Shown here piece by piece: positions 32,629 to 50,285 of a stretch of DNA of 64,000 nt. Numbering within the stretch: position 1 is the stretch's first letter; each line of letters begins with the position of its first letter. The notes below the pieces were generated by a model. It ran no database searches and was not told the DNA's origin. It was given only the letters and a program-made list of their open reading frames with translations. The position numbers and the translations under genes were made by a program. Source of the DNA: a virus (Duplodnaviria > Heunggongvirae > Uroviricota > Caudoviricetes); the IMG/VR virus record IMGVR_UViG_3300029142_000001, positions 1 through 64,000 of that record; one strand, written 5' to 3'.

Positions 32629-33348
32629 ATGAGTAAAAAAGTCATGTTGGTTATTGCGAATTACAAAGACGAGAGGCAATCTATTTTTGATAATCAAATC
32701 TCTCCGAGAAATCAAGAATTTGCAGATGAACATGGATACGAATATATTGTCAGTAAAGGCGGTGATATATTTCGAGGTAATCCAACATGGTGGAAATTTA
32801 CTATACCTGTACAAATGATTAATGAGGGTGTTCTTCGACAAGAAGACACTCTTTTACATTTAGATGCAGATATGGTTATCACCAGAATCGGTAAAGATTA
32901 TCCTAATGATAAAACTTTTGCATACTCCATTGATAATGGAAATACGCATTGCATGGGAAATTATTCTCTTAAGATCAATGATTGGTCTGTAAATATGATT
33001 CGCCATATTCTTAGTGAAGAACTTTGGATGAAGATGCAAAATGATTATCATTGGTCCAGATTCAGAGAACAAGCTGCTTGGTATACTCTTTCTGGTGTGT
33101 GTCATCATAGCTGGGTTCCATTTTTGGATATGCCGAATTATGGATGGCATTCACACTTTACGGATGAAACTCGATATTCTGTAAGAGAACTACACGAAAG
33201 AGTGCATGTTTTAGGACCAGAATGGAATACGACTCTTGTAAATCCTCAAGAGAGATACTATATTCAACCATCAGACCCAAGCGAAACAATAATTAGACAT
33301 TTTGCTGGTGGTCAAAGATGGGATGTTAGTGATTGGATTTGGGCATGA
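32629..33348 (+). CDS. putative GT-A glycosyltransferase (DxD)
   Basis: LHLDADMVI DxD motif; start placed at MSKKVML after GGATTATAG RBS-like stretch. Confidence 0.4.
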   Translation: MSKKVMLVIANYKDERQSIFDNQISPRNQEFADEHGYEYIVSKGGDIFRGNPTWWKFTIPVQMINEGVLRQEDTLLHLDADMVITRIGKDYPNDKTFAYSIDNGNTHCMGNYSLKINDWSVNMIRHILSEELWMKMQNDYHWSRFREQAAWYTLSGVCHHSWVPFLDMPNYGWHSHFTDETRYSVRELHERVHVLGPEWNTTLVNPQERYYIQPSDPSETIIRHFAGGQRWDVSDWIWA

Positions 33349-34247
33349 AAAAAGATACAATTAGAATATGTTTTGTAGATTTTTGGCCTAATCTGTTCCA
33401 GGACGATAATTATTTTTATAATCTTCTATCAACAAAATACAATGTGATTATTGATTTTGAAAATCCAGATATTGTATTCTATTCTGTTGATTATATGAGG
33501 CGTGGAGATATTCGTAGATACATGGATAAACCATGTAAAAAGATCTATTACACAGGAGAAAACACACTTCCTGATTGGAATGTTGCTGATCTCGGATTCA
33601 CATTCGATTATGCATCACATGGAGGAAAGAACTACAGACTTCCTCTTTGGTCTCTCCTTATTAACTGGTTTGATCGTCCATACATTCAAGAAAGAGATCA
33701 TGCATATCTCCATGATCCAGAATATCTTCTAAATTCTAAGAAATTCTCCGGATTCAAGAATCTATTTTGTAATTTTGTATACACACAACCCAAAGCCCGT
33801 AGAGTTACTATATTCCCTAAATTGACCGAGGCATTTCCGGGTATGATTCATTCTGCTGGATCTGTTTTTAACAACACCGGAACAAAACTTCCCGGTCGTG
33901 GAGATACAAAGGATAAAGTAGATTATTTGTCAAATTTTAAATTTACCATCTCATTTGAGAATCAACAAGCAAGTGGATATCAAACCGAAAAAATATTCCA
34001 TCCAATGATGGTTGGAAGTATTCCAGTTTATTGGGGAAATCCAACTGTAAAGACTGATTTTAATCCAGACTCTTTCATCAATGCAAATACCATGACTGAT
34101 GAAGAGGTTATACATAGAATGCGTGAAATTCATGAAGATGATGAGCTATATCAGCATATCTTATCTCAACCGTGGTTTCACGATAATAAGTTTCCAGATT
34201 TTATCATGCCCACTAATGTTCTTGCAAAGATAGAGAGTATTTTATGA
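33345..34247 (+). CDS. alpha-1,3-fucosyltransferase-like (GT10)
   Basis: FKFTISFENQQASGYQTEKIFHPMMVGSIPVYWG matches the GT10 FxLxFEN...DYxTEK motif. Confidence 0.55.
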   Translation: MKKDTIRICFVDFWPNLFQDDNYFYNLLSTKYNVIIDFENPDIVFYSVDYMRRGDIRRYMDKPCKKIYYTGENTLPDWNVADLGFTFDYASHGGKNYRLPLWSLLINWFDRPYIQERDHAYLHDPEYLLNSKKFSGFKNLFCNFVYTQPKARRVTIFPKLTEAFPGMIHSAGSVFNNTGTKLPGRGDTKDKVDYLSNFKFTISFENQQASGYQTEKIFHPMMVGSIPVYWGNPTVKTDFNPDSFINANTMTDEEVIHRMREIHEDDELYQHILSQPWFHDNKFPDFIMPTNVLAKIESIL

Positions 34248-34909
34248 TTCCAACAACTTATGTTTTACATTATGATAAATTGCCAGAGAGAAGACAATTT
34301 ATGGAATATCAATTTGAACATCAAAAATTTTGTGATGTTGTTTGGTATACCGATGAGGAAGATAATCTAGAAGGAATTTACGATGGTGTAAACTCTTCTA
34401 GATTTACTGAAAAGGTCCGGATTGGTGGTTGGAATACAGAAGAACATCGTCCCCGATTTTTAAATCAAGCAGAAATATCATTAACAGCAAAATTCGGAAG
34501 AGTTTTTAGATTGATCGCAGAAAATCCAAATCCATATTCTTTGCTGTTTGAAGATGATGCTTGTTTATGCCCACATTTTCTTCAAAATATGAATTTATAT
34601 TTGCATAACACTCCAGATGATTGGGATGTTATCTATATGGGATCTGGTGCAAATTTACATCCTAAAAATCTTGAAATTGGAAAATATGCATATTTGATGG
34701 ATCATCCAGCTTCTCGTTGTGCAGATTCTATTCTTATCAAAAGAGAAGCGGCCAAGAAACTCGCAGATGATTTCTTTCCGTTTGATCTCTGTTCAGATTG
34801 GGAAATTGGATATCTTCAGGCAAAACATAAAATGAATGTTTATTGGTGGGAACCTTCTTTGGTTCATCAAGGATCTGAAACTAATCTCTTTAATTCTTCT
34901 CTAAGGTAA
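34244..34909 (+). CDS. glycosyltransferase family 25 (LPS/LOS-type)
   Basis: YVLHYDKLPERRQFMEYQF N-terminal and LLFEDDACLCPHF motif typical of GT25. Confidence 0.5.
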   Translation: MIPTTYVLHYDKLPERRQFMEYQFEHQKFCDVVWYTDEEDNLEGIYDGVNSSRFTEKVRIGGWNTEEHRPRFLNQAEISLTAKFGRVFRLIAENPNPYSLLFEDDACLCPHFLQNMNLYLHNTPDDWDVIYMGSGANLHPKNLEIGKYAYLMDHPASRCADSILIKREAAKKLADDFFPFDLCSDWEIGYLQAKHKMNVYWWEPSLVHQGSETNLFNSSLR

Positions 34910-34915
34910 AAGTAT

Positions 34916-35497
34916 ATGTCAGAAAGATACATCATAACCCCAGGAGCGTGTGGAACACATGCTCTTATAGATTTTATGGGGTCAAGCTATTCGAAACGAG
35001 ATCATCATCGTAGAAACTCAAATAGCTTTCAGGCAAATTCAAAAATTGTGTATCTTTTTGCAAATCCATATGATACCATTCTTTCTTTTTTCAGGAGAAA
35101 CGATCAAGGAGGAAAATTCCTTGAATCTCATTGCAAACATATGGAAGGAAATGATGGATATTTCCATAAGAAGAAAATTACACTGGAAGAGTTTTTGAAA
35201 GATCCCAATGATCCTTTCATGCTGGAAGATCATTATCTGGAGTATGTAAATAATGTAAATAGAAACTATGATCTTCTGGTTGTAAGATATGATACTCTTA
35301 AATATGAAGGTCCAAAATCGATTATTGATTTTTGGGGATTGGATATCGATCCATCCAAATTTAAATTTATAAAAAGAAATTCTTGTTGGACTGATCAGTC
35401 AGAAGAAATACAGGATCTTTTTTATCAGAAATATGGAAAGTTCAAAGACATGTATGATCAGCTTCCTAATTCCCAATTGTATAAGAGAGAAAATTAA
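34916..35497 (+). CDS. putative sulfotransferase
   Basis: IITPGACGTHAL (5'-PSB-like P-loop) and LFANPYDTILSFF (3'-PB RNPxD-like) motifs. Confidence 0.4.
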   Translation: MSERYIITPGACGTHALIDFMGSSYSKRDHHRRNSNSFQANSKIVYLFANPYDTILSFFRRNDQGGKFLESHCKHMEGNDGYFHKKKITLEEFLKDPNDPFMLEDHYLEYVNNVNRNYDLLVVRYDTLKYEGPKSIIDFWGLDIDPSKFKFIKRNSCWTDQSEEIQDLFYQKYGKFKDMYDQLPNSQLYKREN

Positions 35498-36465
35498 TGA
35501 AAAAAATTGTATTTTATTCTGATCATTGTGATATTCGAGGAACTGGAATTACCATTTTTGAATTCGCTATTGGATGTCGAGATATTCTTGGTCATGATGT
35601 TCTTTGTGCTTTTTCCAGAAATAACAAGCACAATCATCCAGACGCAATCAAAAAATTTGAAGATCATGGACTTACAATGGCATGGTTTGATGATGTTCAT
35701 CAAGCAAAGAATATTATTCCGAGTCTTGGCTATGAGTATGTTTTTCAGATTCGAAGTGAGGGGTATAACCCGGATTATGATTTTCCTGGTATGAAGAATT
35801 TGATTCAACAAACAGGTGTTCGAACTCCTGCAAGTCAAGCCTATGGTCATAGATATTCCCATGTATCTCGATGGGTAGATAAATTTTGTGGTGGTGATGG
35901 ATCAAATGCTGTTCCAATCCCTATTCGTCTTCATGAAACAAAAGAAGATTTGAGAGAAGAATTAGGAATTCCTAAAGAAATGACTATTTTTGCAAGAACT
36001 GGTGGTGAAGATACTTGGAATCTTTGGTTTGCTAATAATGCAATTGTAAAGGCTTTGGAACAAAATGAAAATATAGGATTTTTGTTCCAAAATACTCCGA
36101 ATGTTCCCTCTCATCCAAGAATATTTCATGCAAGAACAACAGCAGATGCAGAGTATAAAAGAAAATTTATTAACACATCTGATTTTATGCTTCATTGTCG
36201 AGTAGAAGGAGAATCTTTTGGAGTTGCTGTTGCTGAATTTTCATCTGCAAATAAACCTGTAATCACATGGTCAGAATCACGAGAAAGAGCCCATATAGAT
36301 TATTTGGGTTCTAAGATGTATCAATATACGACTGAAGATCAATTGGTCAATCTTTTAATTTATTTTGATCGTGGAGGGAAAGCAAAAATAGGTGATTGGA
36401 ATGCATATGAAGATTTCACTTCAGAAAAGATCATGAAAACATTTGAAAGGATCTACCTATCATGA
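35497..36465 (+). CDS. glycosyltransferase, GT-B fold
   Basis: EGESFGVAVAEFSSANKPVI matches the E..FG...EA...G.PVI donor-binding motif. Confidence 0.5.
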   Translation: MKKIVFYSDHCDIRGTGITIFEFAIGCRDILGHDVLCAFSRNNKHNHPDAIKKFEDHGLTMAWFDDVHQAKNIIPSLGYEYVFQIRSEGYNPDYDFPGMKNLIQQTGVRTPASQAYGHRYSHVSRWVDKFCGGDGSNAVPIPIRLHETKEDLREELGIPKEMTIFARTGGEDTWNLWFANNAIVKALEQNENIGFLFQNTPNVPSHPRIFHARTTADAEYKRKFINTSDFMLHCRVEGESFGVAVAEFSSANKPVITWSESRERAHIDYLGSKMYQYTTEDQLVNLLIYFDRGGKAKIGDWNAYEDFTSEKIMKTFERIYLS

Positions 36466-37265
36466 GAAATGAACTAACTGTACTTATTCCTACACATGCA
36501 GTCAAGGTTGAACAGATTGGACCATACAAAAATCATCGTCAACAAAATCGAACCGCTCCATATACCGATTTGATTGAAAAGGTGATCAAAAACATTCAAG
36601 AATCATTAACTTTATTTGATTTACAATTTGTGATTGGATTGGATCATAAAGAAGACGATGATCTTTCTTGTGAGTATTTGGAAAATCTCAAGAAATTGGG
36701 CCATACTGTGATAACAACAGATTCTAAACTTGAAGATAAACCTCTTACAACTGTTACAGCAACTAGAAACTTTTTGAATCTCATTGATCATTCTCCTACC
36801 GAATGGTTTATGTTATGGGAGCATGATTGGGTATTTTCAGATTCTGACTTTATTCGAGAAAAGCAAGAATCTATTTTAGCAAGTACATTATGGCATACTC
36901 CATTGGGAAGAGATGTCATGCTTAGATTTAACCAAAGAGAAAATAAAACATATGAAGGCCATGAATTTGTATGGGTTGAATATGAATCTCCAGAAACAAA
37001 AGGCCAAGTTTTAAGAACAAGTCTCTATTCTAATAATCCATTCATCACCAGTAAAACATATTGGAAAAAATTCTTCGAGCCATATGCAAGAGAAATTCCT
37101 GATTGGTGGGGAGAACATGGGGCATTTATTGAAGGTCCAATCAATAGAAATCTTAAAGAAAAACACAATGTAGAAGATTATACGATTAACCTATTTGGAA
37201 ATATGGGAATGAAAGCCTCAGTTCATCATTTAAACGGGCAAGTATGGGATAATAGAAATGACTAA
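36462..37265 (+). CDS. hypothetical protein, possible GT2-like glycosyltransferase
   Basis: ELTVLIPTHA resembles the GT2 N-terminal strand; weak. Confidence 0.3.
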   Translation: MRNELTVLIPTHAVKVEQIGPYKNHRQQNRTAPYTDLIEKVIKNIQESLTLFDLQFVIGLDHKEDDDLSCEYLENLKKLGHTVITTDSKLEDKPLTTVTATRNFLNLIDHSPTEWFMLWEHDWVFSDSDFIREKQESILASTLWHTPLGRDVMLRFNQRENKTYEGHEFVWVEYESPETKGQVLRTSLYSNNPFITSKTYWKKFFEPYAREIPDWWGEHGAFIEGPINRNLKEKHNVEDYTINLFGNMGMKASVHHLNGQVWDNRND

Positions 37266-38151
37266 AAAAATTGCGATGTTTTGGGATTATGATCCAAATC
37301 AACCAGATCAATGGTGCACTCCTTATGGGATTTATAGTCATCTCAAAAATGTTTTTCGATATGAGATGAGGCAATATTGTACTCTTAAAGGAGACAAGAC
37401 AAAAGGATTCAGAGATTATCTTGAAGATGATTTTCAAGCTGATGCTCTTGTTCTTTTTAATGCTGGACCACTTCCAGGAGCAGAAAATTACTGGAATAAA
37501 GAAGTTATGGGAGATGCTCTATTAATTCAAGAAGCTGGTGATGAACCTCAATGCTATAATCACACTCTTTCATTTAGTACAAATTCTGATCTTGTCCTCA
37601 CTCCCGATCTCCGATGTGTAGAGATGTATGAAACTCGTGGAGTTAATGTTGAATGGATGACTCATTGGTGTGATGAAAAGATTTTTTTCGACAAACCAGA
37701 TCAAGAAATTACAAATGATGTTGTCAGTTCTATGTGTGGAGGAAGACAAAGAGCAAGTGTCATTCAAAATCTTGTTGGTCCAGAAAAATTTAAAAATGCG
37801 ACTGGATTAATCGGATTGCAAAATGGAGAATGGCTTCGAACAGGAAAAATTATTCTCCAAGATTCTAGATATGATGAAATAACCAGAAGAATTTTCGAAG
37901 GTATGGGATGTAAAAGAATGGTCCTGACAGATAGGATTTCGAAGGATACAGGACTTGAAGATCTTTTTGTTGATAGAGAGGATATCGTATATTACGACTC
38001 ACCAGAACATGCGGTTGAACTTATTGAGTACTATCTTAAGAATGATTCTGAAAGAGAAAGAATAGCCGAAAATGGCTATTTAAAGGTCATGGAGGGGCAT
38101 ACTTCTCTCCATAGAGCAGATCAAATTTCTCAATTTATTTTATCAAATTGA
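37258..38151 (+). CDS. CgeB-like glycosyltransferase (putative)
   Basis: C-terminal EHAVELIEYYLKNDSERERIAENGYLKVMEGHT resembles the Glyco_trans_1_2/CgeB C-terminus. Confidence 0.4.
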   Translation: MTKKIAMFWDYDPNQPDQWCTPYGIYSHLKNVFRYEMRQYCTLKGDKTKGFRDYLEDDFQADALVLFNAGPLPGAENYWNKEVMGDALLIQEAGDEPQCYNHTLSFSTNSDLVLTPDLRCVEMYETRGVNVEWMTHWCDEKIFFDKPDQEITNDVVSSMCGGRQRASVIQNLVGPEKFKNATGLIGLQNGEWLRTGKIILQDSRYDEITRRIFEGMGCKRMVLTDRISKDTGLEDLFVDREDIVYYDSPEHAVELIEYYLKNDSERERIAENGYLKVMEGHTSLHRADQISQFILSN

Positions 38152-38153
38152 CT

Positions 38154-38181
38154 TGACTTTTACATGTTTTTCTCCTATACT
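38154..38181 (+). promoter_or_regulatory. promoter (TTGACTTT-16-TATACT) with conserved RBS cassette
   Basis: -35 at 38154-38159, -10 at 38176-38181, GGAAAGGAGAA RBS. Confidence 0.6.
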
Positions 38182-38200
38182 ATGGGAAAGGAGAAATACC

Positions 38201-38416
38201 ATGAATATGGATACTATTAAAACTCTTCTCCAAGAAGGAATCCACGATGTTACATCTGATTCACCTGACTTTTATGAGCGTGATTCTAGAGAATGTATGA
38301 GAATTGCCCGTATGGAAAATGGATTTATTTCATTGATTGGTATTCTCGTTGAAAACGGCATTCTCAAAGAAGATGATGTCCTTAAGATTGAAATGGATAT
38401 TTATCATACTTATTAA
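38201..38416 (+). CDS. small early protein
   Basis: 72 aa; start chosen downstream of the promoter/RBS cassette. Confidence 0.5.
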   Translation: MNMDTIKTLLQEGIHDVTSDSPDFYERDSRECMRIARMENGFISLIGILVENGILKEDDVLKIEMDIYHTY

Positions 38417-38444
38417 ATATTTTCCTGGAAGTGTTTGACTTTCA

Positions 38445-38472
38445 GGGATTTTAACATAGTATACAAAAAGGA
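38445..38472 (+). promoter_or_regulatory. promoter (TTGACTTT-16-TAGTAT) embedded in an imperfect terminator hairpin
   Basis: cctggaag...ctttcaggga-tttt hairpin around the -35 at 38445-38450. Confidence 0.45.
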
Positions 38473-38480
38473 AAATTATC

Positions 38481-38897
38481 ATGAACATTGTTGATTTTAC
38501 ATTTGGAATTGCACCTTCTGTCCAAGCAATCGCTCAGATGCTTAATGGTCGGAGTGAAGAAATGAGTTCTTCCCTTACTCCACTTACTCTTTTTAAAACT
38601 TCCCCTTGGTATAATGGCCGAGAAAGGGGAATGGTATTCACTCTTGGAATTCCTGAAATTTGTAAGAGTATGAATATCGTGGTATTCGAACATCGTAACG
38701 GTGGTGGACTATGTGGTTATGCTTGGATTACAGATAGTGCATATTATCTAAATCCCCCATCTCTTAATGATTCACTTGATCGTATCTATGAAGACGAAGA
38801 AACAATTTCATTTTTCTGTTCTGAAAATGAAATTAATGAAATGGCAGAGCGTATTTATGACACTTTTTCTGAATTTATTGATGAATATGTAGATTAA
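38481..38897 (+). CDS. hypothetical early protein
   Basis: 138-aa ORF with AAAGGAAAAT RBS. Confidence 0.5.
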   Translation: MNIVDFTFGIAPSVQAIAQMLNGRSEEMSSSLTPLTLFKTSPWYNGRERGMVFTLGIPEICKSMNIVVFEHRNGGGLCGYAWITDSAYYLNPPSLNDSLDRIYEDEETISFFCSENEINEMAERIYDTFSEFIDEYVD

Positions 38898-38902
38898 ATT
38901 GT

Positions 38903-38931
38903 TTGACTTTTGCATGTTTTACTACTATACT
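38903..38931 (+). promoter_or_regulatory. promoter (TTGACTTT-17-TATACT), near-identical cassette to 38154
   Basis: ttgacttttgcatgttttactactatactatgggaaaggagaatt is a close copy of the 38154 cassette. Confidence 0.6.
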
Positions 38932-38950
38932 ATGGGAAAGGAGAATTATC

Positions 38951-39154
38951 ATGTTGACTCAAGGAACCATTCTTGTTGCCCCCGCTGGAAACTTTATTCT
39001 CGGGGCCATTACAATTTATCCGGATCCTATTGATAATACTCCAGTTATTGAAATTCCTGCTACGCATATAGGAACAAATCAAACTCATATGTTGAATGTT
39101 GAGTCAACTCTTCAAAATATTGCTGAAGGCGTGATTAAAATTCATGAGAAATAA
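38951..39154 (+). CDS. small early protein
   Basis: 67 aa downstream of the cassette. Confidence 0.5.
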   Translation: MLTQGTILVAPAGNFILGAITIYPDPIDNTPVIEIPATHIGTNQTHMLNVESTLQNIAEGVIKIHEK

Positions 39155-39166
39155 AGGTAAATAAAA

Positions 39167-39571
39167 ATGAGAAAATTGTATGTTACATATGAAATGAACT
39201 GTTTTGAAGATACATCCAATCATTATGGCCCAGGGGCTTATGATTATGAATGGAGTACTCGATACGATCCTGAATTAACAGCAGTTTATTCTGAATTTCC
39301 TGAAAACTTTCAGTTTTCCTATGAAAAGTTTTCTGTTGATTTTGATTCAACTGAAGTTTATGTTCTTGCTGTTGTTTATTCAAGTGGTGATACTTTCGGT
39401 AATTCTTCGGGAAATCTTGCAATTGTTGGTATTTATGAAACAATTGAACAGGCTAGAGAAATTGAGAAAAGCATTCTTTCGAATACTTTTGATCCTGAAA
39501 AATATCATCCTTGGGGTGGTTATTTTGAAAGAATTGAAGAAATTAAGATTGAGAAATTTGGAGTTATGTAA
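39167..39571 (+). CDS. hypothetical acidic protein
   Basis: 134-aa ORF. Confidence 0.45.
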   Translation: MRKLYVTYEMNCFEDTSNHYGPGAYDYEWSTRYDPELTAVYSEFPENFQFSYEKFSVDFDSTEVYVLAVVYSSGDTFGNSSGNLAIVGIYETIEQAREIEKSILSNTFDPEKYHPWGGYFERIEEIKIEKFGVM

Positions 39572-39763
39572 TGAAATATGAAAGCGTAAAAGATATTCCA
39601 GATGAACTATTAATCTCTTTGTGTAGGCGTAATCTTAATAAGTGTTGGCTTGATGATTTCACCACTACAATGCTTGTAAATGAGCTTGCACTTCGAATGC
39701 AAATTCGGAACGAGGAATTGCATAATTGCAAGAAAGATCAATACTAAAACATTCCCTGAAAGC

Positions 39764-39791
39764 TTGACTTTCGGGGATTTTTTGATATAAT
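39764..39791 (+). promoter_or_regulatory. promoter (TTGACTTT-16-TATAAT) with -35 in the loop of a terminator-like hairpin
   Basis: ccctgaaag(cttgac)tttcgggg followed by TTTTTT; -10 at 39786-39791. Confidence 0.55.
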
Positions 39792-39796
39792 AGATT

Positions 39797-40060
39797 ATGG
39801 AAAATACTCCGTACATTTTGATCAAGTCCGAAGATTTTATGTTTACATACATCAATTATAAGACACACGATGTTGTTGCTTTTAATTGGTTGTCAATAGT
39901 CATTGGCGGATTCATGCTGCTGTTTTGGCTGTATGTCCTTTTTGAATTTATGATCGTTCGGGTACAAGGAAATTCACATCTTATTGAAGAGGGGCAATTT
40001 CCTGTTTATGTGATGTTTTTCTTTCAAATTGTTTTGACAGTAGTATTAATTATTATGTGA
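39797..40060 (+). CDS. small membrane protein
   Basis: 87 aa with two TM-like segments. Confidence 0.45.
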   Translation: MENTPYILIKSEDFMFTYINYKTHDVVAFNWLSIVIGGFMLLFWLYVLFEFMIVRVQGNSHLIEEGQFPVYVMFFFQIVLTVVLIIM

Positions 40061-40072
40061 AAAGGTTTTGTA

Positions 40073-40669
40073 ATGGATAAAATGTTGGCAAAATGTTTTG
40101 AAATTTCGATGAAAGCTCATGAAGGTCAGACTCGAATTGGTGGGGGATCATATTTCTTTAATCATGTTTTGGAAGTATATGCTCGTGCAGTTGCGGCAAT
40201 TCCCGAAGAGTATGATGATTCATCGGAACTTCGACTTATTATTGGATGTATTGCTCTTCTTCATGATGTAGTAGAAGATTGTGAAGATTGGACCATTGGA
40301 AGAATTAAAAAAGAATTGTCGGGCATGGAACATTCCCAATCTGTTATTTTATTTACAAATGAAATGGATTTAAATCAATGGGTTCAAACCCAATATGATT
40401 CAAAAACCGATAAAATCGTGTATATGATGGAAAATTGTTCTAGATATACTGCTATTGTGAAGCTTGCAGATAGATTGTGTAACATCAAAACACTTCATGA
40501 ATTGGAACAATGGAATTCAACAAAGAAATATGATTATCTTATGGATGCAACGATTATTTGCCATAAAGCAGCTAAAAGATTTTATTATTTTGAACCTGTA
40601 TTGGCCTTATCTCTACACCTAAAAAGAGAGATTCGTAAGCAATTAACCCATTTGAATGGAGAGCAATAA
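40073..40669 (+). CDS. HD-domain (p)ppGpp hydrolase-like small alarmone hydrolase
   Basis: KAHEGQTRIGGGSYFFNHVLEV...ALLHDVVED matches the SpoT/Mesh1 HD hydrolase core (H...HD...ED). Confidence 0.55.
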   Translation: MDKMLAKCFEISMKAHEGQTRIGGGSYFFNHVLEVYARAVAAIPEEYDDSSELRLIIGCIALLHDVVEDCEDWTIGRIKKELSGMEHSQSVILFTNEMDLNQWVQTQYDSKTDKIVYMMENCSRYTAIVKLADRLCNIKTLHELEQWNSTKKYDYLMDATIICHKAAKRFYYFEPVLALSLHLKREIRKQLTHLNGEQ

Positions 40670-41141
40670 TATGTTTGATGGATATGTGAGTATAGAAAAA
40701 GAAACTCTAAGAAATGTGTGTCTCAAAAGAATTAAAATTGAAGAAAACAGAGCCATAGAAAAGAATAGAGAATCCTTAGAATCTCAAAGAATGTATATTG
40801 GTTCTAATCCAAGATTTATGATTGGAAACCGTGGATTCTTTTTTAGAACATGGACACAAGAAACCATTGAAGAAGTTGAAACTCGACTCAAGAAAGAAGC
40901 AAAAGATTCTGAAAAATATGTACGAAGAAGATCTGCTTATCATAATAATAGATCACATTTGTCACTCAAACAAAATTGTTGGGATTGGTTTAATCGCAAT
41001 ATATTTTTTGATACTACGATCAATTATAGAAAAGAATTCTTTTTGGCAAAAAGATATCTTAAAATTGCTAAAAGTGCAAATGCACTAGAACCAATTTACA
41101 TCTCAGCAAATGATTTTGATTTACTTAATATAGATCTTTGA
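40656..41141 (+). CDS. hypothetical protein
   Basis: 161-aa ORF. Confidence 0.4.
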   Translation: MESNNMFDGYVSIEKETLRNVCLKRIKIEENRAIEKNRESLESQRMYIGSNPRFMIGNRGFFFRTWTQETIEEVETRLKKEAKDSEKYVRRRSAYHNNRSHLSLKQNCWDWFNRNIFFDTTINYRKEFFLAKRYLKIAKSANALEPIYISANDFDLLNIDL

Positions 41142-42288
41142 CCTGATCATATTTCAAAACATAATCACCAGTAATTACTTCTTCCGCATCATATTCAATG
41201 AGCGGAAGATTTTTTAATCTCCTGGAATTTACTTTTGTGGTTTCATAGAATCTATCCATAAATTGATCTGTCATTTCTGCATTTGGATTCCAGAATGAAG
41301 AATCTGGATTCCAAAGAATCATAGTATCAATCCCCATATGGAATAGATGTTTATGCATAGCAGTCCACAATGCAATTTCTTTAGACATATCTTCTTTTCT
41401 TGTCCATGAATTTTTTCCATATCTTCCATATCCTGGTGGAGCAATCCAAGGCACTACAATTCCATTATCCGCACATTGTCTGCATATATTTAATTGGAAA
41501 ATAAAGAAATTCCATCTGGGATTCTTTGTATAATCTTTGAAAAAATGTTCAGATGGTTTATCAAAGTAAAATATTGGAGAAGACCGAGAAGTGACAGAAT
41601 CTGCTCTTACTCTCCAATTTGTATCTGTATACATCACATCAGTTAAATTTAAATCTGCATAGTTAGAGTGTGGAATGCTTTTACCGAACATTGGAAACAT
41701 TGGTCGATTAAATATTCTTCGAATAGCATCGGCGGTTTCATCAATGATATGATCGTTGTAATCGTTAATTGCAATTCGTGTTTCCGGATTTGTTATGTTG
41801 AAAAAATCTTCAAATTGTACATTTCGTACAGATTCTGGAAGCTTTCTCATGGCATCAGAATCATCGAAAATAGAACGAAAAAAATCTTCTCTTTGATTTC
41901 CTTTAGGAATATTCCAATAAAGTGGAGAATCTTCAAAATCATGAATAAAATAATCTGGGGATATGTTTAATTGAACAAGATGCCAAATGTAATCTCTCCA
42001 ATATTGCCAAACTCCATCAATAAATGGTCCATTTTTAATAAATTCTGCTGGATTTGATCTGTCAAATGAATATCTCAATCCAGGAACATTGAATTCTTTC
42101 CAGAATCGTAGCCCTATTTTATTGGGTTGAATTTCTTCTATTTTTTGCTTGGTATCGTTAGCAAGCTGTTCGGGTGTCTTGTTTCGAGGATCTACAACGA
42201 TTGATTCAGACATATTTTCGAATTTTTCTTCACTGGATCTCATCCATGTGTATACTGTTAGGTCTTTGGTAAGCATATATTCCTCCAA
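41125..42288 (-). CDS. hypothetical protein (opposite-strand insert)
   Basis: 387-aa minus-strand ORF embedded in a plus-strand region; Trp/Asp-rich, no motif recognised. Confidence 0.5.
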   Translation of the reverse strand: MEEYMLTKDLTVYTWMRSSEEKFENMSESIVVDPRNKTPEQLANDTKQKIEEIQPNKIGLRFWKEFNVPGLRYSFDRSNPAEFIKNGPFIDGVWQYWRDYIWHLVQLNISPDYFIHDFEDSPLYWNIPKGNQREDFFRSIFDDSDAMRKLPESVRNVQFEDFFNITNPETRIAINDYNDHIIDETADAIRRIFNRPMFPMFGKSIPHSNYADLNLTDVMYTDTNWRVRADSVTSRSSPIFYFDKPSEHFFKDYTKNPRWNFFIFQLNICRQCADNGIVVPWIAPPGYGRYGKNSWTRKEDMSKEIALWTAMHKHLFHMGIDTMILWNPDSSFWNPNAEMTDQFMDRFYETTKVNSRRLKNLPLIEYDAEEVITGDYVLKYDQVKDLY

Positions 42289-42305
42289 TTTTATTTAGGA
42301 AATTG

Positions 42306-42334
42306 CTTGACTTTAATAAAATAAGGGATATAAT
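42306..42334 (+). promoter_or_regulatory. promoter (TTGACTTT-17-TATAAT)
   Basis: -35 at 42306-42311, -10 at 42329-42334, AAAGGAG RBS. Confidence 0.55.
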
Positions 42335-42353
42335 GTTTTAAAGGAGAATCTCT

Positions 42354-42620
42354 ATGTGGAAATTTTTTAAGAGATTTCAAACGCGAGATCTTATTCGAGA
42401 GAACATCGAAAATATCGATCCATCTGATTTTGAACTGCAACTTGTAGAACTTAAAGCTGGTTTTTTGGAAGATTGTAGATTTGATAAGAGAGGGTATCAT
42501 CATACCAAATATTTCATTTTTAAGTATTCTGGTCATATCGTTCTTATGATTAATGGAGTTCAGGAACGAGTAGATGAGCCCTGGTTGGTTAACTATTACG
42601 AGAGAATTATTGCATCATAG
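42354..42620 (+). CDS. hypothetical protein
   Basis: 88-aa ORF after the promoter. Confidence 0.45.
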   Translation: MWKFFKRFQTRDLIRENIENIDPSDFELQLVELKAGFLEDCRFDKRGYHHTKYFIFKYSGHIVLMINGVQERVDEPWLVNYYERIIAS

Positions 42621-42633
42621 TAAAGGAATAAAA

Positions 42634-43845
42634 ATGCAGCATGTAGTTTACGATAAGAATTCTGGAATGCGTGTTCCTGTCAAGGTTTGGACCAAGGATT
42701 ATGAACGGTCAGCACTTGAACAAGCAATGAATGTTGCTCGTCTTCCGTTTATTCATAGTCATGTTGCACTTATGCCTGATACACATTTTGGGTATGGTGT
42801 TCCTATTGGATCCGTTGTTCCCTGTGATGGTTATGTGATTCCCAACGCGGTTGGAGTTGATATCGGATGTGGTATGTGTGCTGTGAACACTCGTATTCAT
42901 CTAGGGGATTTTAGTGATTCTGATATTGATACTCTTTTCAATACATTGAAGACTAGAATTCCTGTTGGTTCAAACTGGCATAAGTCAGATGAATATACTG
43001 CATTGCGATTCGATGAAACCGCTAATGAATTGGCAGATATTTTTGGTCGATATGATCCTGTTGGAAAGAAGCCAATCGATGAAAATTCTTTGGTTCGAAT
43101 GTCTGGAACACTCGGAGATGGAAATCATTTCGTTGAGCTTCAGATTGATGAACACAAGAATATTTGGATCATGATTCATTCGGGATCAAGAGCTTTTGGT
43201 GCATCTATCGCAGATCATTATCATCGTCTTGCAAAGAGAATGTGTGAGCTATACCATAGTGACCTTCCTACGCTTGATCTTGCATATCTTCCTGTGAATT
43301 CCGAAGAAGGACAGGGATATATCCAGGCAATGAATCTTGCTTTGGAATTTGCATATCTTAACCGACGAGTAATGATGCTCAATGTGTTGGAAGTGCTGAG
43401 AAGTATGATTCATGGGGCTCCTATGATGGATGAAATGATTAACATCCACCATAACTATGCAGCCATTGAAAATCACAGAGGAAAGAATGTGTGGGTGCAT
43501 AGAAAGGGAGCAACTTCTGCCCGAGAAAATCAGATTGGAATTATTCCTGGATCTATGTGTACCAAGTCGTACATTGTAAGAGGAAAGGGAGATGGTCATT
43601 CCTTTATGTCTTGTTCTCATGGATCGGGTAGAAACTTCAGTCGAAAGGAAGCAAAGAGACGAATTGATGATGGAATTGATCCTTCTCAGGAAGATCAGTT
43701 GAACGGAGTCAAGGTTTTTGGAGCTTCGGATGTTCGTGATGAAGTTTCATCGGCATATAAGAATGTGGAAGATGTCATGGGATATCAGACAGATTTGGTT
43801 GAAATTTTGCATGAATTGCGTCCTCTGGCAGTTCTAAAGGGTTAA
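42634..43845 (+). CDS. rtcB: RNA-splicing ligase RtcB
   Basis: MPDTHFGYGVPIG, GVDIGCGM, GDGNHF, HSGSRAFG, NIHHNY, CSHGSGR motifs of the RtcB family; start at 42634 after AAAGGAATAAAA. Confidence 0.85.
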   Translation: MQHVVYDKNSGMRVPVKVWTKDYERSALEQAMNVARLPFIHSHVALMPDTHFGYGVPIGSVVPCDGYVIPNAVGVDIGCGMCAVNTRIHLGDFSDSDIDTLFNTLKTRIPVGSNWHKSDEYTALRFDETANELADIFGRYDPVGKKPIDENSLVRMSGTLGDGNHFVELQIDEHKNIWIMIHSGSRAFGASIADHYHRLAKRMCELYHSDLPTLDLAYLPVNSEEGQGYIQAMNLALEFAYLNRRVMMLNVLEVLRSMIHGAPMMDEMINIHHNYAAIENHRGKNVWVHRKGATSARENQIGIIPGSMCTKSYIVRGKGDGHSFMSCSHGSGRNFSRKEAKRRIDDGIDPSQEDQLNGVKVFGASDVRDEVSSAYKNVEDVMGYQTDLVEILHELRPLAVLKG

Positions 43846-43898
43846 ACCCATATAAGATGTGGAATGAAAGTTTCACATCTTTTTTGAAAGGAAGAAAA

Positions 43899-44090
43899 AT
43901 GGAACAATATCATACATATGCAACAGAAGATCTTGTAGAAATTATTGAAACATCAGAATTTCAAAATATCAATGCTATTGCCGCTCTATGCGGAAGGGCT
44001 TTAGAGCTTGAAGATGAGCTTTTTGATTATCGAGATGATGAGGATCCGGAATGGGATAATACAGAAGCTTCGTATCCTCCAATTTTTTAA
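43899..44090 (+). CDS. small acidic protein
   Basis: 63 aa after GAAAGGAAGAAAA RBS. Confidence 0.4.
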   Translation: MEQYHTYATEDLVEIIETSEFQNINAIAALCGRALELEDELFDYRDDEDPEWDNTEASYPPIF

Positions 44091-44107
44091 ATTTTATTCA
44101 AAATCCC

Positions 44108-44136
44108 TTGACTTTTACATGTTTTACTGCTATACT
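44108..44136 (+). promoter_or_regulatory. promoter cassette (TTGACTTT-17-TATACT), third near-copy
   Basis: cccttgacttttacatgttttactgctatact matches the cassettes at 38154 and 38903. Confidence 0.6.
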
Positions 44137-44171
44137 TGTCTTAGGGAATAGCCCCTCAAAGGAGAATTGAA

Positions 44172-44444
44172 ATGACTACTGAAAATGTTGCTCAGAAAAT
44201 GATGGAAGTAAATGCTCATACTCGCTTGGTAAATCACACTAATGCAATTGCACATAGACTTGAACAAATTGCTGAAGATATTCGACGCGAAGCGGATATT
44301 TTTGAAAAAGATATTGAAGGAAATCATATTGTGGGGGTTTCTCAAGTTCAAGCTTTGGTTATTCAAGGAATTGCAAATGTGGGATTGGATAATCTCCCTA
44401 TTCTAGCTAATGAAGTGATTGAAGTTCTAAAAATGAGATCTTGA
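44172..44444 (+). CDS. hypothetical early protein
   Basis: 90-aa ORF with AAAGGAGAATTGAA RBS. Confidence 0.5.
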   Translation: MTTENVAQKMMEVNAHTRLVNHTNAIAHRLEQIAEDIRREADIFEKDIEGNHIVGVSQVQALVIQGIANVGLDNLPILANEVIEVLKMRS

Positions 44445-44463: not shown

Positions 44464-44492
44464 TTGACTTTTAAATGATTTTACCGTATAAT
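44464..44492 (+). promoter_or_regulatory. promoter (TTGACTTT-17-TATAAT)
   Basis: -35 at 44464-44469, -10 at 44487-44492. Confidence 0.55.
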
Positions 44493-44534: not shown

Positions 44535-44873
44535 ATGATTGATGAAACTCGTATTGATGAATTTGTTGTGGAATGGAATAACGCTCGCCAAGATATTGGA
44601 ATGTCACCCGTCACTTCTCGGCGTGGATACAAGTACACTCGCGTCTTGGACAATGAAGGAACGACTCTTGGATTTGTCGATAATTCCACTGGAGATGTTC
44701 TGAAGGCAGCTTCGAATGCAGCACCCGCAACCAACCATGTTCGTGGATCTGCAACCAACCCGGCATCTGATATGCTTGTTGATGGAGCAATTCCCCATCT
44801 CAAGCGTGGTCGTCGTCCCCGTGGTGAAACCGTGGAAGTTGTTGAAGTCGAATCGCCTGAAAGCGTTGCATAA
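44535..44873 (+). CDS. small protein with AT-hook-like motif, GC-rich coding
   Basis: Start after CAGGAGAATTGAAA RBS; KRGRRPRGE resembles an AT-hook; local GC much higher than surroundings. Confidence 0.45.
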   Translation: MIDETRIDEFVVEWNNARQDIGMSPVTSRRGYKYTRVLDNEGTTLGFVDNSTGDVLKAASNAAPATNHVRGSATNPASDMLVDGAIPHLKRGRRPRGETVEVVEVESPESVA

Positions 44874-46187: not shown

Positions 46188-46260
46188 GGGGGATTGGTGA
46201 AACTGGATATCATGAAAGACTACGAATCTTTTGTTCCGAGTTCGAATCTCGGGTTCCCCG
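46188..46260 (+). tRNA. tRNA-Arg (anticodon ACG)
   Basis: Acceptor GGGGGAT/GTTCCCC (2 GU), AC stem aaaga/tcttt loop ctACGaa, T-arm ccgag-ttcgaat-ctcgg; D-arm not cleanly resolved. Confidence 0.55.
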
Positions 46261-46268
46261 TTTAAACT

Positions 46269-46352
46269 GGAAGAGAACCGGCTGGATCAGGAGCCTGTCT
46301 TGAAAACAGGTAGGGTTAATAGCCCTTGGGGGTTCGAGTCCCCCCTCTTCCG
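46269..46352 (+). tRNA. tRNA-Ser (anticodon TGA), class II
   Basis: Acceptor ggaagag/ctcttcc, AC stem cctgt/acagg loop ctTGAaa, long variable arm, T-arm ggggg-ttcgagt-ccccc. Confidence 0.7.
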
Positions 46353-46374
46353 CTTCTATTTAAAGGAGAAAAAT

Positions 46375-46572
46375 ATGAAAATTTTAGCAGTTTTAGTGTT
46401 TTGCTTGTTTGTTCTTTCTGGATGTTCAACATCTAGTACAGATGTTTCCCAGGTTGATGACTCCGGAGTATCATTAACCGTGGTTAATCCAGATACAGGC
46501 ATTCAAGAAACACTTCGTTTCGATTCTAAAAGAGAAGCAGATGAATACATGTCGGGATTGTATTCAGATTAA
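46375..46572 (+). CDS. small secreted/lipoprotein
   Basis: MKILAVLVFCLFVLSGC signal/lipobox after TAAAGGAGAAAAAT RBS. Confidence 0.5.
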   Translation: MKILAVLVFCLFVLSGCSTSSTDVSQVDDSGVSLTVVNPDTGIQETLRFDSKREADEYMSGLYSD

Positions 46573-46593
46573 TTTTTTCAAAAAGGAAGAAAA

Positions 46594-47436
46594 ATGCACA
46601 GACTAATTTCGTTGATACTATTTTGCATCGTATGTTTAAGCATAGGTACAAGTTCAGCATTTGCAAGTGGAGATTATCCGTATCCATATACAGGACCAAG
46701 TGATGGTCAGTCTGGATATGGATATGTTCCTGAACATCACTACGATCCAGGAACAGGAAATGGACCTACAGATCCATATACTATTTTCCTTTTGGAAATG
46801 ATTAATGGAGCAGATGAATATGAAGAAGTAAGCAAGAAGAATTTGTCTCTTTGTTTATTCTTTGCAACTACTCCGTATGAAAGATTGCAATGCATCATCG
46901 GCCATGCAAGTAACGATCGAATCGAAGCAGAAAAACACCATGCTTGGATGCAAAGACGAGACAATTACATGCAATTTTTATTCTGTAGATGTATGGAAAA
47001 TGCAGGAGATTTTGGTACATGTAACGATAAGTATCCAACACATCCAAACGATCCTACATGGTACCCAACTCCATCATATTGTGATGGACTAGATGAGGCA
47101 ACTTGCCCTGAATGGGATCCAGATGCTGGTGAAGATGGTTTCGGTGGTTGTGTGGGTCAAGGAGAAGGAGATTGGGATTGGCTTGAAAATCTGAATTACC
47201 CAGTTGGTGATCCAGAAAGCAATGACGGATTCGATTCTTGGACACAAGAAATGCACGATGTTTATGAGGACTGGAGAGTTTCAGTTGCAACAAACATGAG
47301 AGATTTCTATACAGATATTGAAAACGGAGAAACTCTTGAAGATGCAATCGTTTTCTTTTACATTGCATATGATGCTGATACAAGTGCTTTTATCTCATCA
47401 TTTTACGCAGAAGTTATCGCATCTGGTAACTATTAA
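46594..47436 (+). CDS. secreted cysteine-rich protein
   Basis: Signal peptide MHRLISLILFCIVCLSIGTSSAFA; acidic, Cys-rich mature region. Confidence 0.5.
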   Translation: MHRLISLILFCIVCLSIGTSSAFASGDYPYPYTGPSDGQSGYGYVPEHHYDPGTGNGPTDPYTIFLLEMINGADEYEEVSKKNLSLCLFFATTPYERLQCIIGHASNDRIEAEKHHAWMQRRDNYMQFLFCRCMENAGDFGTCNDKYPTHPNDPTWYPTPSYCDGLDEATCPEWDPDAGEDGFGGCVGQGEGDWDWLENLNYPVGDPESNDGFDSWTQEMHDVYEDWRVSVATNMRDFYTDIENGETLEDAIVFFYIAYDADTSAFISSFYAEVIASGNY

Positions 47437-47466
47437 GTATAAACACATTGCCCTATAAGGGCAATT

Positions 47467-47551
47467 GGAAGATAATCCCCGATGGTGAAGGGCCTCGCTT
47501 GGAAAGTGAGTGGAGCTTAATAGGCTTCTGGTTCGATTCCAGTATCTTCCG
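47467..47551 (+). tRNA. tRNA-Ser (anticodon GGA), class II
   Basis: Acceptor ggaagat/atcttcc, AC stem ctcgc/gtgag loop ttGGAaa, long variable arm, T-loop ttcgatt. Confidence 0.6.
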
Positions 47552-47580
47552 TTTTTAAAATCTCATTTTAAATAAAATCT

Positions 47581-47669
47581 GGAAAGTAGGCAACTATCGG
47601 TTCGTTGCACCACCCTGCTAAGGTGGCGTATTCTTCGGAGTACTAAGGGTTCGAGTCCCTTACTTTCCG
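47581..47669 (+). tRNA. tRNA-Ser (anticodon GCT), class II
   Basis: Acceptor ggaaagt/actttcc, AC stem ccacc/ggtgg loop ctGCTaa, long variable arm, T-arm aaggg-ttcgagt-ccctt. Confidence 0.65.
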
Positions 47670-47675
47670 CTTAAC

Positions 47676-47749
47676 ATTCCTGTAACTCAATTGGCCAGAG
47701 TGCTTGCTCGACATGCAAGTGGTTCCCAGTTCGAATCTGGGCAGGAATA
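47676..47749 (+). tRNA. tRNA-Val (anticodon GAC)
   Basis: Acceptor attcctg/caggaat, D actc/gagt, AC cttgc/gcaag loop tcGACat, T-arm cccag-ttcgaat-ctggg. Confidence 0.7.
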
Positions 47750-47762
47750 TTTTGAAAATTAC

Positions 47763-47790
47763 TTGACTTCCTCGAAATATCTCCTATAAT
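47763..47790 (+). promoter_or_regulatory. promoter (TTGACTTc-16-TATAAT)
   Basis: -35 at 47763-47768, -10 at 47785-47790. Confidence 0.55.
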
Positions 47791-47827
47791 GTATTATAAT
47801 GTATGTAAAGACTTGAATGGAGTTAAA

Positions 47828-48022
47828 ATGGTAGATCCTGTCATGGCTTTAATTATTTTGGGTGTAGGAATTTTATATTGTGTTATTCGTATTGCAACGA
47901 ATTCGCCCGAAAGAATGTATAAAATTCAGAAAAAAGCCTTCGAAAGACAGAAACGAACTGATGAAGCTTTTGCTTCATATTTGGGTGAATATTACAAAAT
48001 TAAAAATGATGTGTACAAGTAA
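47828..48022 (+). CDS. small membrane protein
   Basis: 64 aa, N-terminal TM helix. Confidence 0.45.
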   Translation: MVDPVMALIILGVGILYCVIRIATNSPERMYKIQKKAFERQKRTDEAFASYLGEYYKIKNDVYK

Positions 48023-48037
48023 TTATAGGAATTTATA

Positions 48038-48256
48038 ATGGAATTTGATCTTGAAAAAGTAATTGAAGAAATCATTGTTGGTAATTCAAATGGAATCAAA
48101 TATACTGCATTGATTGCAGAAGTTCTCGATATCGCACAATCTTCCGGAGCTATTGTAACTCTCGATGAGATCGAAAATGCTGTTACATCAAAGTATACTT
48201 ATCTCAAATACACATTCCAAGGGCGGGAAAAGTGGTTTGTTTTTAAGAATAGTTAA
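48038..48256 (+). CDS. hypothetical protein
   Basis: 72-aa ORF. Confidence 0.4.
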   Translation: MEFDLEKVIEEIIVGNSNGIKYTALIAEVLDIAQSSGAIVTLDEIENAVTSKYTYLKYTFQGREKWFVFKNS

Positions 48257-48268
48257 ACGGAGTATATC

Positions 48269-48727
48269 ATGAATACAATCAATGAATTCACAGATGAAGA
48301 ACTTCAGCAAGAACTTGATCGAAGAAAGATTCAAGCTGCTTGTGAAGAAACTCTAAAAAAGTTGAAGGAATGGGGAAATCCTTATGGAGTGTGGAGGATT
48401 TCAACAGAAGGTGATTGTGAAGGGCGTACAGTAAATGTTCTTGCAACTCGAAAAGGCCATATTGCTGATCTTGCAAGAATCTATGAGAGGGATAAGATGT
48501 ACACTCTCACATTCACAAAAATTGATTTGGATGAAGATGATATTGTAGATACGCCTTCAGAAAAAGGTTCATTCTCTCTTAATTATCACACTTTTCCATC
48601 AGAAGTTGGAGGACATCATCTTGCAATGAGTCAAAAAGTTCATATTGTACAAGAATGGATTGGACCTAATTTTATTGTAGAGAGTTATGAACGAGGATCT
48701 TTTATTGTTAGTAAGAAAAAAACATAG
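48269..48727 (+). CDS. hypothetical protein
   Basis: 152-aa ORF. Confidence 0.45.
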   Translation: MNTINEFTDEELQQELDRRKIQAACEETLKKLKEWGNPYGVWRISTEGDCEGRTVNVLATRKGHIADLARIYERDKMYTLTFTKIDLDEDDIVDTPSEKGSFSLNYHTFPSEVGGHHLAMSQKVHIVQEWIGPNFIVESYERGSFIVSKKKT

Positions 48728-48779
48728 TTTAAAATAATATGAAAGCCTTCATTTTCCTATATAACTATAGGAGAGTGAA

Positions 48780-49271
48780 ATGGAAAAGAAAGTTTTAAAT
48801 GATTTAATAAATTCTGGATTGACACATAAAGAAATTGCAAATAAGGTGGGATGTAGTCAAACCAATGTAAGATATTATATCAAAAAATATAACATTAAAA
48901 AAGGATATTGTATAGTATGTAATAATCAATTGCAAGGAAATCAAAGAAAATATTGTTCTGATCAATGTAAGGGAAGAATATATAAAGAAAATGCAAATAT
49001 ATATGAAAATCAAAAAAAGAGAGCAATTGAAAGAAAAATTAAATTAATAAATATGTGTGGTGGTGAATGTTCTGTATGTGGTTATAAAAAAAATATAGCA
49101 GCATTACATTTTCATCATATTTTACCGGATACAAAATTATTTCAATTAGATTCTAGAAAATGTGCAAATTCTAAATGGAGTACACTACTAACAGAAGTTA
49201 AAAAATGCTCTCTTTTATGTGCAAATTGTCATGCTGAATTACATCATAAAAAATACAATAATTTGATTTAG
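48780..49271 (+). CDS. HNH homing endonuclease with N-terminal HTH
   Basis: LTHKEIANKVGCSQTNVRYYI HTH; HNH core ALHFHHILPD...CSLLCANCHAELHHK. Confidence 0.6.
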   Translation: MEKKVLNDLINSGLTHKEIANKVGCSQTNVRYYIKKYNIKKGYCIVCNNQLQGNQRKYCSDQCKGRIYKENANIYENQKKRAIERKIKLINMCGGECSVCGYKKNIAALHFHHILPDTKLFQLDSRKCANSKWSTLLTEVKKCSLLCANCHAELHHKKYNNLI

Positions 49272-49357: not shown

Positions 49358-49376
49358 TTTTAAAGGAGAATATAAC

Positions 49377-50275: not shown

Positions 50276-50285
50276 GATAAAATTG

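Follow-up and report, generated by a model that had tools for sequence, protein, structure and literature searches.

Near-identical promoter cassettes with PeSL-like organisation in front of small ORFan genes of an uncultivated, tRNA-rich phage

The 64,000-nucleotide stretch of DNA analysed here (the window) corresponds to positions 1 to 64,000 of IMG/VR record IMGVR_UViG_3300029142_000001, a virus of the class Caudoviricetes. On its + strand, between 38153 and 44174, the window includes three copies of a cassette composed of a promoter, a short leader and a Shine-Dalgarno sequence (SD), each located directly in front of a small gene, and a fourth copy lies beyond its end. These cassettes are likely to be paralogous copies of one promoter/SD unit driving early ORFans, probably copied recently, with an organisation in the style of the promoter-early stem-loop (PeSL) cassettes of T4-type phages. 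The near-identity of the copies exceeds what promoter function requires, and the most likely cause is that the cassette was recently copied, or underwent gene conversion, within the genome.

The motif TTGACTTTTRCATGTTTTWCTMCTATACT was found on the + strand at 38153-38181 and 38903-38931 without a mismatch, and at 44108-44136 with one mismatch. No match is expected by chance, as none was seen in 100 dinucleotide-preserving shuffles, and a looser promoter pattern gave 10 matches versus 0.52 expected. The core of the cassette is a 29-nt σ70-type promoter with a -35 box TTGACT, a 17-nt spacer and a -10 box TATACT, which agree with the consensus at 10 of 12 positions in all three copies. In copy 1 (38153..38203), the -35 box at 38153-38158 is followed by the spacer TTTACATGTTTTTCTCC, the -10 box at 38176-38181, GGAG at 38190-38193 and an ATG at 38201. 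Copy 2 (38903..38953) has its -35 box at 38903-38908, the spacer TTTGCATGTTTTACTAC, its -10 box at 38926-38931, a leader and SD shared with copy 1, and its ATG at 38951. As judged by direct reading and by a repeat finder, these two copies are identical at 46 of 51 positions from the first base of the -35 box through the ATG. Copy 3 (44108..44174; -35 box 44108-44113, spacer TTTACATGTTTTACTGC, -10 box TATACT 44131-44136, ATG 44172) has only the 29-nt promoter in common with copies 1 and 2, and its spacer contains the TGn of an extended -10 element. The leader of copy 3 is longer and different (TGTCTTAGGGAATAGCCCCTCAAAGGAGAATTGAAATG); it spans 35 nt (TGTCTTAGGGAATAGCCCC..AGGAGA) and also occurs behind two promoters outside the window. 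The sequence AAAGGAG is located 6-8 nt before the ATG (7 nt in copies 1 and 2, 8 nt in copy 3), and homology among the copies ends at the start codon.

A sequence-only reading of the window had reported a cassette reused at these three sites. All three are present, and the first begins at 38153 rather than 38154. The same reading described the copy at 44108 as carrying small changes, which understates the divergence downstream of the -10 box, as the leader differs.

Overlapping pieces of the same JGI contig, identical to the window where they overlap it, were used to extend the sequence to 73,971 bases. The fourth copy, TTGACTTTTACATGTTTTAGTGCTATACT, is located 4.8 kb beyond the window (L077 15184-15212, extended coordinate 68810), where it is preceded by a terminator hairpin, carries the leader seen in copy 3 and heads genes for DUF6876 and DUF932 proteins. 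Over-representation of the motif, which had been proposed as a check, was borne out by this wider search, which revealed ~26 similar promoters, nearly all co-oriented, in addition to the fourth copy. Given the metagenomic origin of the sequence, an assembly artefact was considered together with chance similarity. However, one JGI assembly and two Logan assemblies carry the identical sequence, hence the repeat is not an assembly artefact. With identity in three independent assemblies, the result of the shuffles and the intergenic location of each copy before an SD and ATG, the probability of an artefact or of chance similarity is negligible.

Spacers were compared for the 13 promoters that have a spacer of 17 nt. 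Among the four copies, 14-16 of 17 positions are identical, and the conserved pattern is TTT[A/G]CATGTTTT[T/A][C/G]T[C/A/G]C, whereas the other 72 pairs have a mean identity of 6.2 and a maximum of 12. The nearest promoter that is not a member of this subfamily, at 44464, has 12 of 17 positions in common with copy 1. The subfamily spacer occurs with two different leaders, one (U1, ATGGGAAAGGAGAAWTAYCATG) common to copies 1 and 2 and the other (U2, TGTCTNAGGGAATnnnCCC..AGGAGA) common to copies 3 and 4. Copies 3 and 4 additionally have ~20 nt upstream of the -35 box in common and are identical at 68 of 100 positions overall, and the U2 leader is also found at extended coordinate 68503 (L077 14877-14905), behind a promoter whose spacer is unrelated. 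The upstream flanks of copies 1 and 2 (TTTCTCAATTTATT versus TTTCTGAATTTATT) resemble each other with only weak significance (p 0.007, uncorrected for multiple testing). Both U1 leaders lack structure (z -0.7 and +1.4). For the U2 leader of copies 3 and 4, the possibility of a stabilising 5' stem-loop (GGGA..TCCC) was rejected, as its fold is no better than shuffles (z -0.1 to -0.6; -0.14 in copy 3).

The subfamily spacer is particular to this genome and is absent from two distant relatives (L079 and L080) that use the same promoter dialect. The exact cassette pattern had no match in IMG/VR or in the metagenome collection, and a relaxed 23-base pattern had no match in IMG/VR. In the metagenome collection the relaxed pattern matched only one locus of 28% GC, the same sequence being present in three contigs (L082 9060-9088, L083 836-864 and L084 4553-4581). 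This locus, which carries TTGACTTTTTCATGTTTTTATATTATACT, is of bacterial type and has no homology to the phage, indicating that AT-rich genomes can independently give rise to a promoter with the relaxed motif.

The bacterial-type locus bears on the possibility that the copies are not related by descent and play no part in recombination, but converged under selection that maximised promoter strength and translation initiation in an AT-rich genome. Convergence would also be in keeping with the extended consensus, including TTGACTTT and a T-rich spacer, that is common to promoters of this genome and its relatives, and with the eight promoters of the same compact design. However, the spacer is weakly constrained by promoter function, and 19 other strong promoters in the 74 kb have hexamers that are as good or better and very different spacers (the mean of 6.2 of 17 given above). 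Moreover, the two nested blocks of identity, in copies 1/2 and 3/4, reach non-promoter positions, which is the pattern left by copying, and convergence is considered improbable.

Selection could instead have kept the spacer as an operator, bound between the -35 box and the -10 box by a phage or host protein that co-regulates the early genes, for example in their shut-off. A spacer identity far above that of the other promoters in the genome, and its retention in copies having different leaders, would be expected of such a site, and the spacer has a palindromic core CATG, extended to ACATGT in three of the four copies. The palindrome nevertheless covers only 4-6 bp, with no extended dyad symmetry or direct repeat in the spacer, and no candidate regulator was identified. 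The spacer is also missing from both relatives, IMG/VR and the metagenome collection apart from the one unrelated locus, and identity runs on through the leader to the ATG in copies 1/2 and through the leader and upstream sequence in copies 3/4, fitting copying better than a 17-bp site. An operator is accordingly an unlikely explanation. A further reading, to which little weight is given, treats the spacer as a recognition site, either for a regulator of a separately timed sub-regulon of early ORFans or for a recombination or helper protein making the cassettes mobile in an integron-like manner, in a phage lineage remote from the T4-like phages known to carry PeSLs. Copying of the cassette is favoured over an operator or convergence because the blocks of identity are nested, U2 also occurs with an unrelated spacer and the relatives lack the subfamily spacer.

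PeSL cassettes have been described in the T4-type phages RB49/phi1, T4/PST and KVP40/nt-1 (Arbiol, Comeau, Krisch 2010, PMC2839356; Comeau, Arbiol, Krisch 2014, PMC4122927). They consist of an AT-rich stretch, a σ70 promoter, a stem-loop in one of five positions, an SD and ATG, are conserved over ~100 bp and are clustered in hyperplastic regions beside ORFans (PMC2839356, PMC4122927). Recombination between them was demonstrated by indels in sister phages and by mini-circles, and crossovers were mapped between the -10 box and the SD/ATG (PMC2839356, PMC4122927). The earlier suggestion that the cassettes in the window could mediate recombinational gene shuffling corresponds to this published mechanism (PMC2839356, PMC4122927).

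Four of the five PeSL features examined are present here, namely σ70 boxes with a spacer of ~17 bp, an AT-rich stretch, an SD and start codon at the 3' end, and location in a variable region with ORFans. The fifth, a stem-loop, is found in copy 4, in the promoters at 38435 and 39764 and in four other promoters, but not in the three reported copies. Both systems are built from intergenic repeats of ~50-100 bp that include an AT-rich stretch, a near-consensus σ70 promoter with N16-17, an SD and the start codon of a small ORFan, and in both a large phage with tRNA genes has these repeats clustered in its variable regions. Neighbouring elements in the window have hairpins over the -35 box, enclosing the -10 box or upstream of the -35 box, all positions listed for PeSLs, and the promoter/leader chimeras are the products expected of exchanges between the -10 box and the SD/ATG. 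By contrast, the three copies resemble elements that the authors regarded as degraded or promoter-only, the stems are not of the polyG/polyC type, and any relationship of the phage to T4-like phages is distant, with a primase that is 35% identical. Furthermore, PeSLs are supported by mini-circles, sister-genome indels and reporter assays, whereas the present elements are predicted from sequence. The predicted early promoter cassettes are classed as PeSL-like, and the reported copies as promoter-only members of this class.

Early promoters of T4 are dependent on the host σ70 and have an extended consensus that includes UP-like A/T tracts. Like them, the cassettes have strong -35 and -10 boxes and an AT-rich upstream element, and are found in many co-oriented copies before small, presumably non-essential early genes. 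The -35 box TTGACT differs from the TTTACW of T4/PST (PMC4122927), and the four copies are far more alike than a family consensus would imply. Another comparison is with the morons of lambdoid phages, genes with their own promoter and terminator that have been contrasted with PeSLs (PMC2839356). The promoter at 38153, orf71 and the terminator at 38422-38448 are moron-like in that a single small gene lies between its own promoter and terminator. Morons, however, lack conserved flanks, are thought to move by illegitimate recombination and usually belong to temperate phages, whereas here the units have repeated flanks and the same orientation as the early genes around them.

In the mechanism proposed, each cassette would provide an AT-rich UP-like stretch, a near-consensus promoter for the primary σ factor of the host, whose 17-bp spacer is of optimal length, and a short leader with a strong SD (AAAGGAG). 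Given what is established for early promoters of the T4 type, host RNA polymerase would use the cassettes from the start of infection, such that each small downstream gene could be expressed strongly and independently. Hairpin and U-run terminators, some fused to the next promoter, would insulate neighbouring units. The copies would then serve as sites of homologous exchange at which ORFans can be inserted, deleted or swapped, and exchange of ORFans between cassettes probably occurs as in the PeSLs of T4-type phages. Recombination between the copies is suggested by the mosaic of promoter and leader modules.

A number of points weigh against this interpretation. No significant stem-loop is present in the three reported copies (-8.3, -7.1 and -6.8 kcal/mol, compared with a background mean of -8.05), hence one defining PeSL component is missing from them. 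The homology of the upstream flanks is weak (p ~0.007-0.008 before correction for six tests), and the longest perfect runs common to the copies are only ~19-21 nt, short for efficient homologous recombination. Searches at the nucleotide, cassette-pattern and protein levels found no closely related genome or population variant, and as a result no recombination event between cassettes is demonstrable. Look-ups of identical proteins retrieved the same genome only, from one JGI and two Logan samples and in no variant context, and a look-up at the window's left end retrieved nothing. The affinity to T4-like phages rests mainly on the primase, a T4-type RNA ligase domain being the only other indication, and no structural genes lie within the window. 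Promoter activity, start sites and early timing are predicted from the DNA, early expression being assigned by promoter type.

The genes behind the cassettes are all on the + strand. Copy 1 precedes orf71 (38201..38416), an ORFan with no Pfam or PHROG match. The ORFan orf138 (38481..38897), also without a Pfam or PHROG match, separates copy 1 from copy 2. Behind copy 2, the first gene is orf67 (38951..39154), which has no Pfam or PHROG match, and it is followed by orf134 (39167-39571) and orf58 (39571-39747) with neither promoter nor terminator between them. Behind copy 3 is orf90 (44172..44444), an ORFan that has no Pfam match and is absent from the syntenic slot in the relatives. The gene caller of the source assembly predicts the same orf71, orf67 and orf90. 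The sizes of 67 and 90 aa reported previously can be retained, while the first product is 71 and not 72 aa long. The assignment of one short open reading frame to each cassette requires revision for copy 2, as its transcription unit probably comprises three genes (67, 134 and 58 aa) and ends at the terminator at 39753-39777.

No mutual resemblance was detected by blastp among the small open reading frames of the region, and the genes behind copies 3 and 4 are unrelated to each other. Homologue searches of large collections covered orf71, orf138 and orf90. For orf138 and orf71, only the self-match was obtained among 5.8 billion proteins, and for orf90 only the self-match when 1.8 billion representatives were searched exhaustively with HMMER. 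A structure-based reading of orf71 and orf67 was abandoned, as the single-sequence AlphaFold2 models were too poor (pLDDT 55 and 52, respectively). Immediately upstream of copy 1, a cluster at 33333-38151 includes at least two glycosyltransferase genes (one fucosyltransferase-like and one Glyco_trans_1_2), and the stop codon of its last gene lies 1 nt before the -35 box of copy 1.

The cassettes belong to a wider promoter family, which includes at least 23 other strong promoters that have the same orientation and are AT-rich upstream. A scan of the 74 kb extended sequence with the pattern TTGAC(T/A/C)-N16-18-TAnAnT identified 26 sites on the + strand versus 2 on the - strand, nearly all co-oriented with the genes, and most are directly upstream of an SD and start codon or of a tRNA gene. 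From 23 sites, the consensus aaa.aT.tttt.aAaat..C-TTGACTTTt...TATAAT was derived. The AT content of 23 promoters in the segment 8-20 nt upstream of the -35 box is 83-96% versus 65% for the genome, resembling an UP element, and this AT-rich stretch is visible in each cassette copy. Only 17-20 nt separate the -10 box from the ATG in eight promoters, hence compact promoter-SD-ATG units are a general trait of the genome. The T4 late-promoter box TATAAATA shows no enrichment (7 occurrences versus 6.9 expected), and no late-transcription genes were found within the window.

The interpretation in the sequence-only reading is supported in part and broadly correct. Its description of the region as a string of individually promoted small genes is supported, the promoters being near-consensus σ70-type promoter/SD cassettes. 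Of the additional promoters named in the sequence-only reading, those at 39764 and 44464 stand, the one placed at 38445 lies at 38435 and has a weak -10 box (-35 TTGACT, -10 TAGTAT; + strand), and the one placed at 42306 begins at 42307. The last of these (TTGACT-16-TATAAT, 42307..42334, + strand) precedes orf88 (42354-42620) and the RtcB gene (42634-43845), and the promoter at 44464..44492 (TTGACT-17-TATAAT, + strand) precedes orf112 (44535-44873), which has a weak DUF7717 match. At 39764, the -10 box ends 5 nt before the ATG of orf87, predicted to encode a membrane protein, and there is no SD; this arrangement suggests either that the mRNA is leaderless or that the start codon is misplaced. 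At 46153 and 60285, promoters of this family are directly followed by tRNA genes.

Two of the promoters are fused to terminators on the + strand. At 38422..38462, a hairpin (38422-38448, -14.4 kcal/mol, z -4.1) is followed by a U-run, with the -35 box TTGACT at 38435-38440 and the -10 box TAGTAT at 38457-38462. At 39753..39791, a hairpin (39753-39777, -14.5 kcal/mol, z -5.6) is followed by six U, with the -35 box TTGACT at 39764-39769 within the hairpin and the -10 box TATAAT at 39786-39791. In both, the loop and 3' arm hold the -35 box of the next promoter, and the U-run forms the spacer of that promoter. A further intrinsic-terminator-like hairpin followed by six U (43854..43881, + strand, -14.7 kcal/mol, z -4.6) is located after the RtcB gene, and the hairpin and U-run just upstream of copy 4, outside the window, has values of -10.2 kcal/mol and z -2.3.

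For a census of hairpins, the best hairpin around each of 27 promoters was compared with the genomic background (mean -8.05, 5th percentile -13.1 kcal/mol). Six promoters (25855, 30411, 38435, 39764, 54155 and 60057) have a hairpin at or below the 5th percentile. At 54155 and 60057, the spacer pairs with the promoter's own SD and a T-run follows. In the hairpins at 54170-54207, 60068-60101 and 25872-25899 (-14.5 to -17.4 kcal/mol), the spacer is complementary to the SD or leader of the same promoter, such that the -10 box is enclosed, and a T-run follows. Such hairpins would terminate or mask read-through transcripts, whereas transcripts from the promoter itself would keep a free SD.

With the promoters and terminators combined, the following transcription units are predicted. 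The promoter at 38153 would drive orf71 up to the terminator at 38422, and the promoter at 38435 would drive orf138. The promoter at 38903 probably drives orf67, orf134 and orf58 up to the terminator at 39753. A unit starting at 39764 would comprise orf87, the gene for an HD-domain hydrolase and orf156, and the promoter at 42307 would serve orf88 and the RtcB gene up to the terminator at 43854. Presumably, orf63 is expressed by read-through. Finally, orf90 would be transcribed from 44108, and orf112 and the genes onward from 44464.

The genome, with ~34% GC and 24 tRNA genes, is large and phage-like. Recognisable genes encode NAMPT, two RNA ligases, thymidylate synthase, primase, two exonucleases, RtcB and an HD-domain hydrolase. 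A class II (B12-dependent) ribonucleotide reductase gene at 22138-25560 is interrupted by an intein with a LAGLIDADG homing endonuclease. The primase is of the T4 gp61 type, with best matches to T4-like cyanophages at 35% identity. It matches 2401 phage records, most of which are T4-like, and the genome also encodes an RNA ligase domain of the T4 type; an affinity to the T4 superfamily is probable. No nucleotide match of the region was found among cultured phages, and RtcB is at most 50% identical to IMG/VR proteins and at most 59% identical to proteins of a large collection. The phage thus represents a distant, uncultivated lineage.

The RtcB proteins of L079 and L080 are 56% and 55% identical, respectively, to that of the window. 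L079 retains homologues of orf112 (DUF7717-like), orf106 and DUF3307, and L080 retains homologues of orf112 and the HD hydrolase. Between these anchor genes, both relatives hold different small open reading frames, and those in the slot between the RtcB gene and orf112 are unrelated. The region behaves as a variable, hyperplastic ORFan region. In L080, the HD hydrolase and RtcB genes are adjacent, whereas here they are separated by orf156, orf383 on the reverse strand, and orf88, which has a promoter of its own; hence, these three genes look like an inserted module. The only reverse-strand gene in this + strand block is orf383 (41128-42276), which has no Pfam or PHROG match. The HD-domain phosphohydrolase (198 aa, 40073-40669) has weak HD, HD_4 and YfbR-like Pfam matches and matches phrog_990 at 2.4e-16, and it may be a nucleotide or alarmone hydrolase. 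An Rfam scan revealed only tRNAs.

The context of the cassettes is compatible with an anti-defence role of their genes, though nothing links orf71, orf67 or orf90 themselves to such a role. Outside the window, the same co-oriented, promoter-headed gene string includes a homologue of Gad1 (Gabija anti-defence 1; L077 18881-19888, Pfam E 2.9e-42). Just outside the window, a NUDIX protein (L077 16804-17733) has a weak cytidylyltransferase-like N-terminal match (E 0.0026) and is read as a putative NMNAT-NUDIX fusion. Together with the NAMPT encoded in the window at 28151-29533, this protein resembles the NAD-reconstitution pathway of phages. Gad1 and the NAD-salvage genes belong to other transcription units than the cassette genes. 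The idea that copy 4 drives Gad1 was dismissed, as a terminator and a further promoter lie between them and the two are only neighbours. An Acb2/Tad1-like reading of a 114-aa protein (63627-63971) was also discarded, since a new Pfam scan at E <= 0.01 failed to reproduce the weak precomputed hit. The same co-oriented string also encodes RtcB, three RNA-ligase domain proteins and the 24 tRNAs. The RNA-repair set (26777-27874, 31339-32313, 42634-43845 and 56136-56810), made up of a T4 Rnl1-type ligase, two RNA_ligase (PF09414) proteins and RtcB, is unusually complete and accompanies the 24 tRNA genes, which are located at 46188-63246.

The class of element is already described and no new mechanism is revealed; what is new is its presence in a distant phage lineage. 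PeSL-style organisation would thereby be extended to an uncultivated, tRNA-rich phage lineage distant from the T4-like phages. The cassettes represent compact natural promoter-ribosome binding site parts, and orf71, orf67, orf90, orf138 and others are candidates for screens of host-takeover or anti-defence activity.

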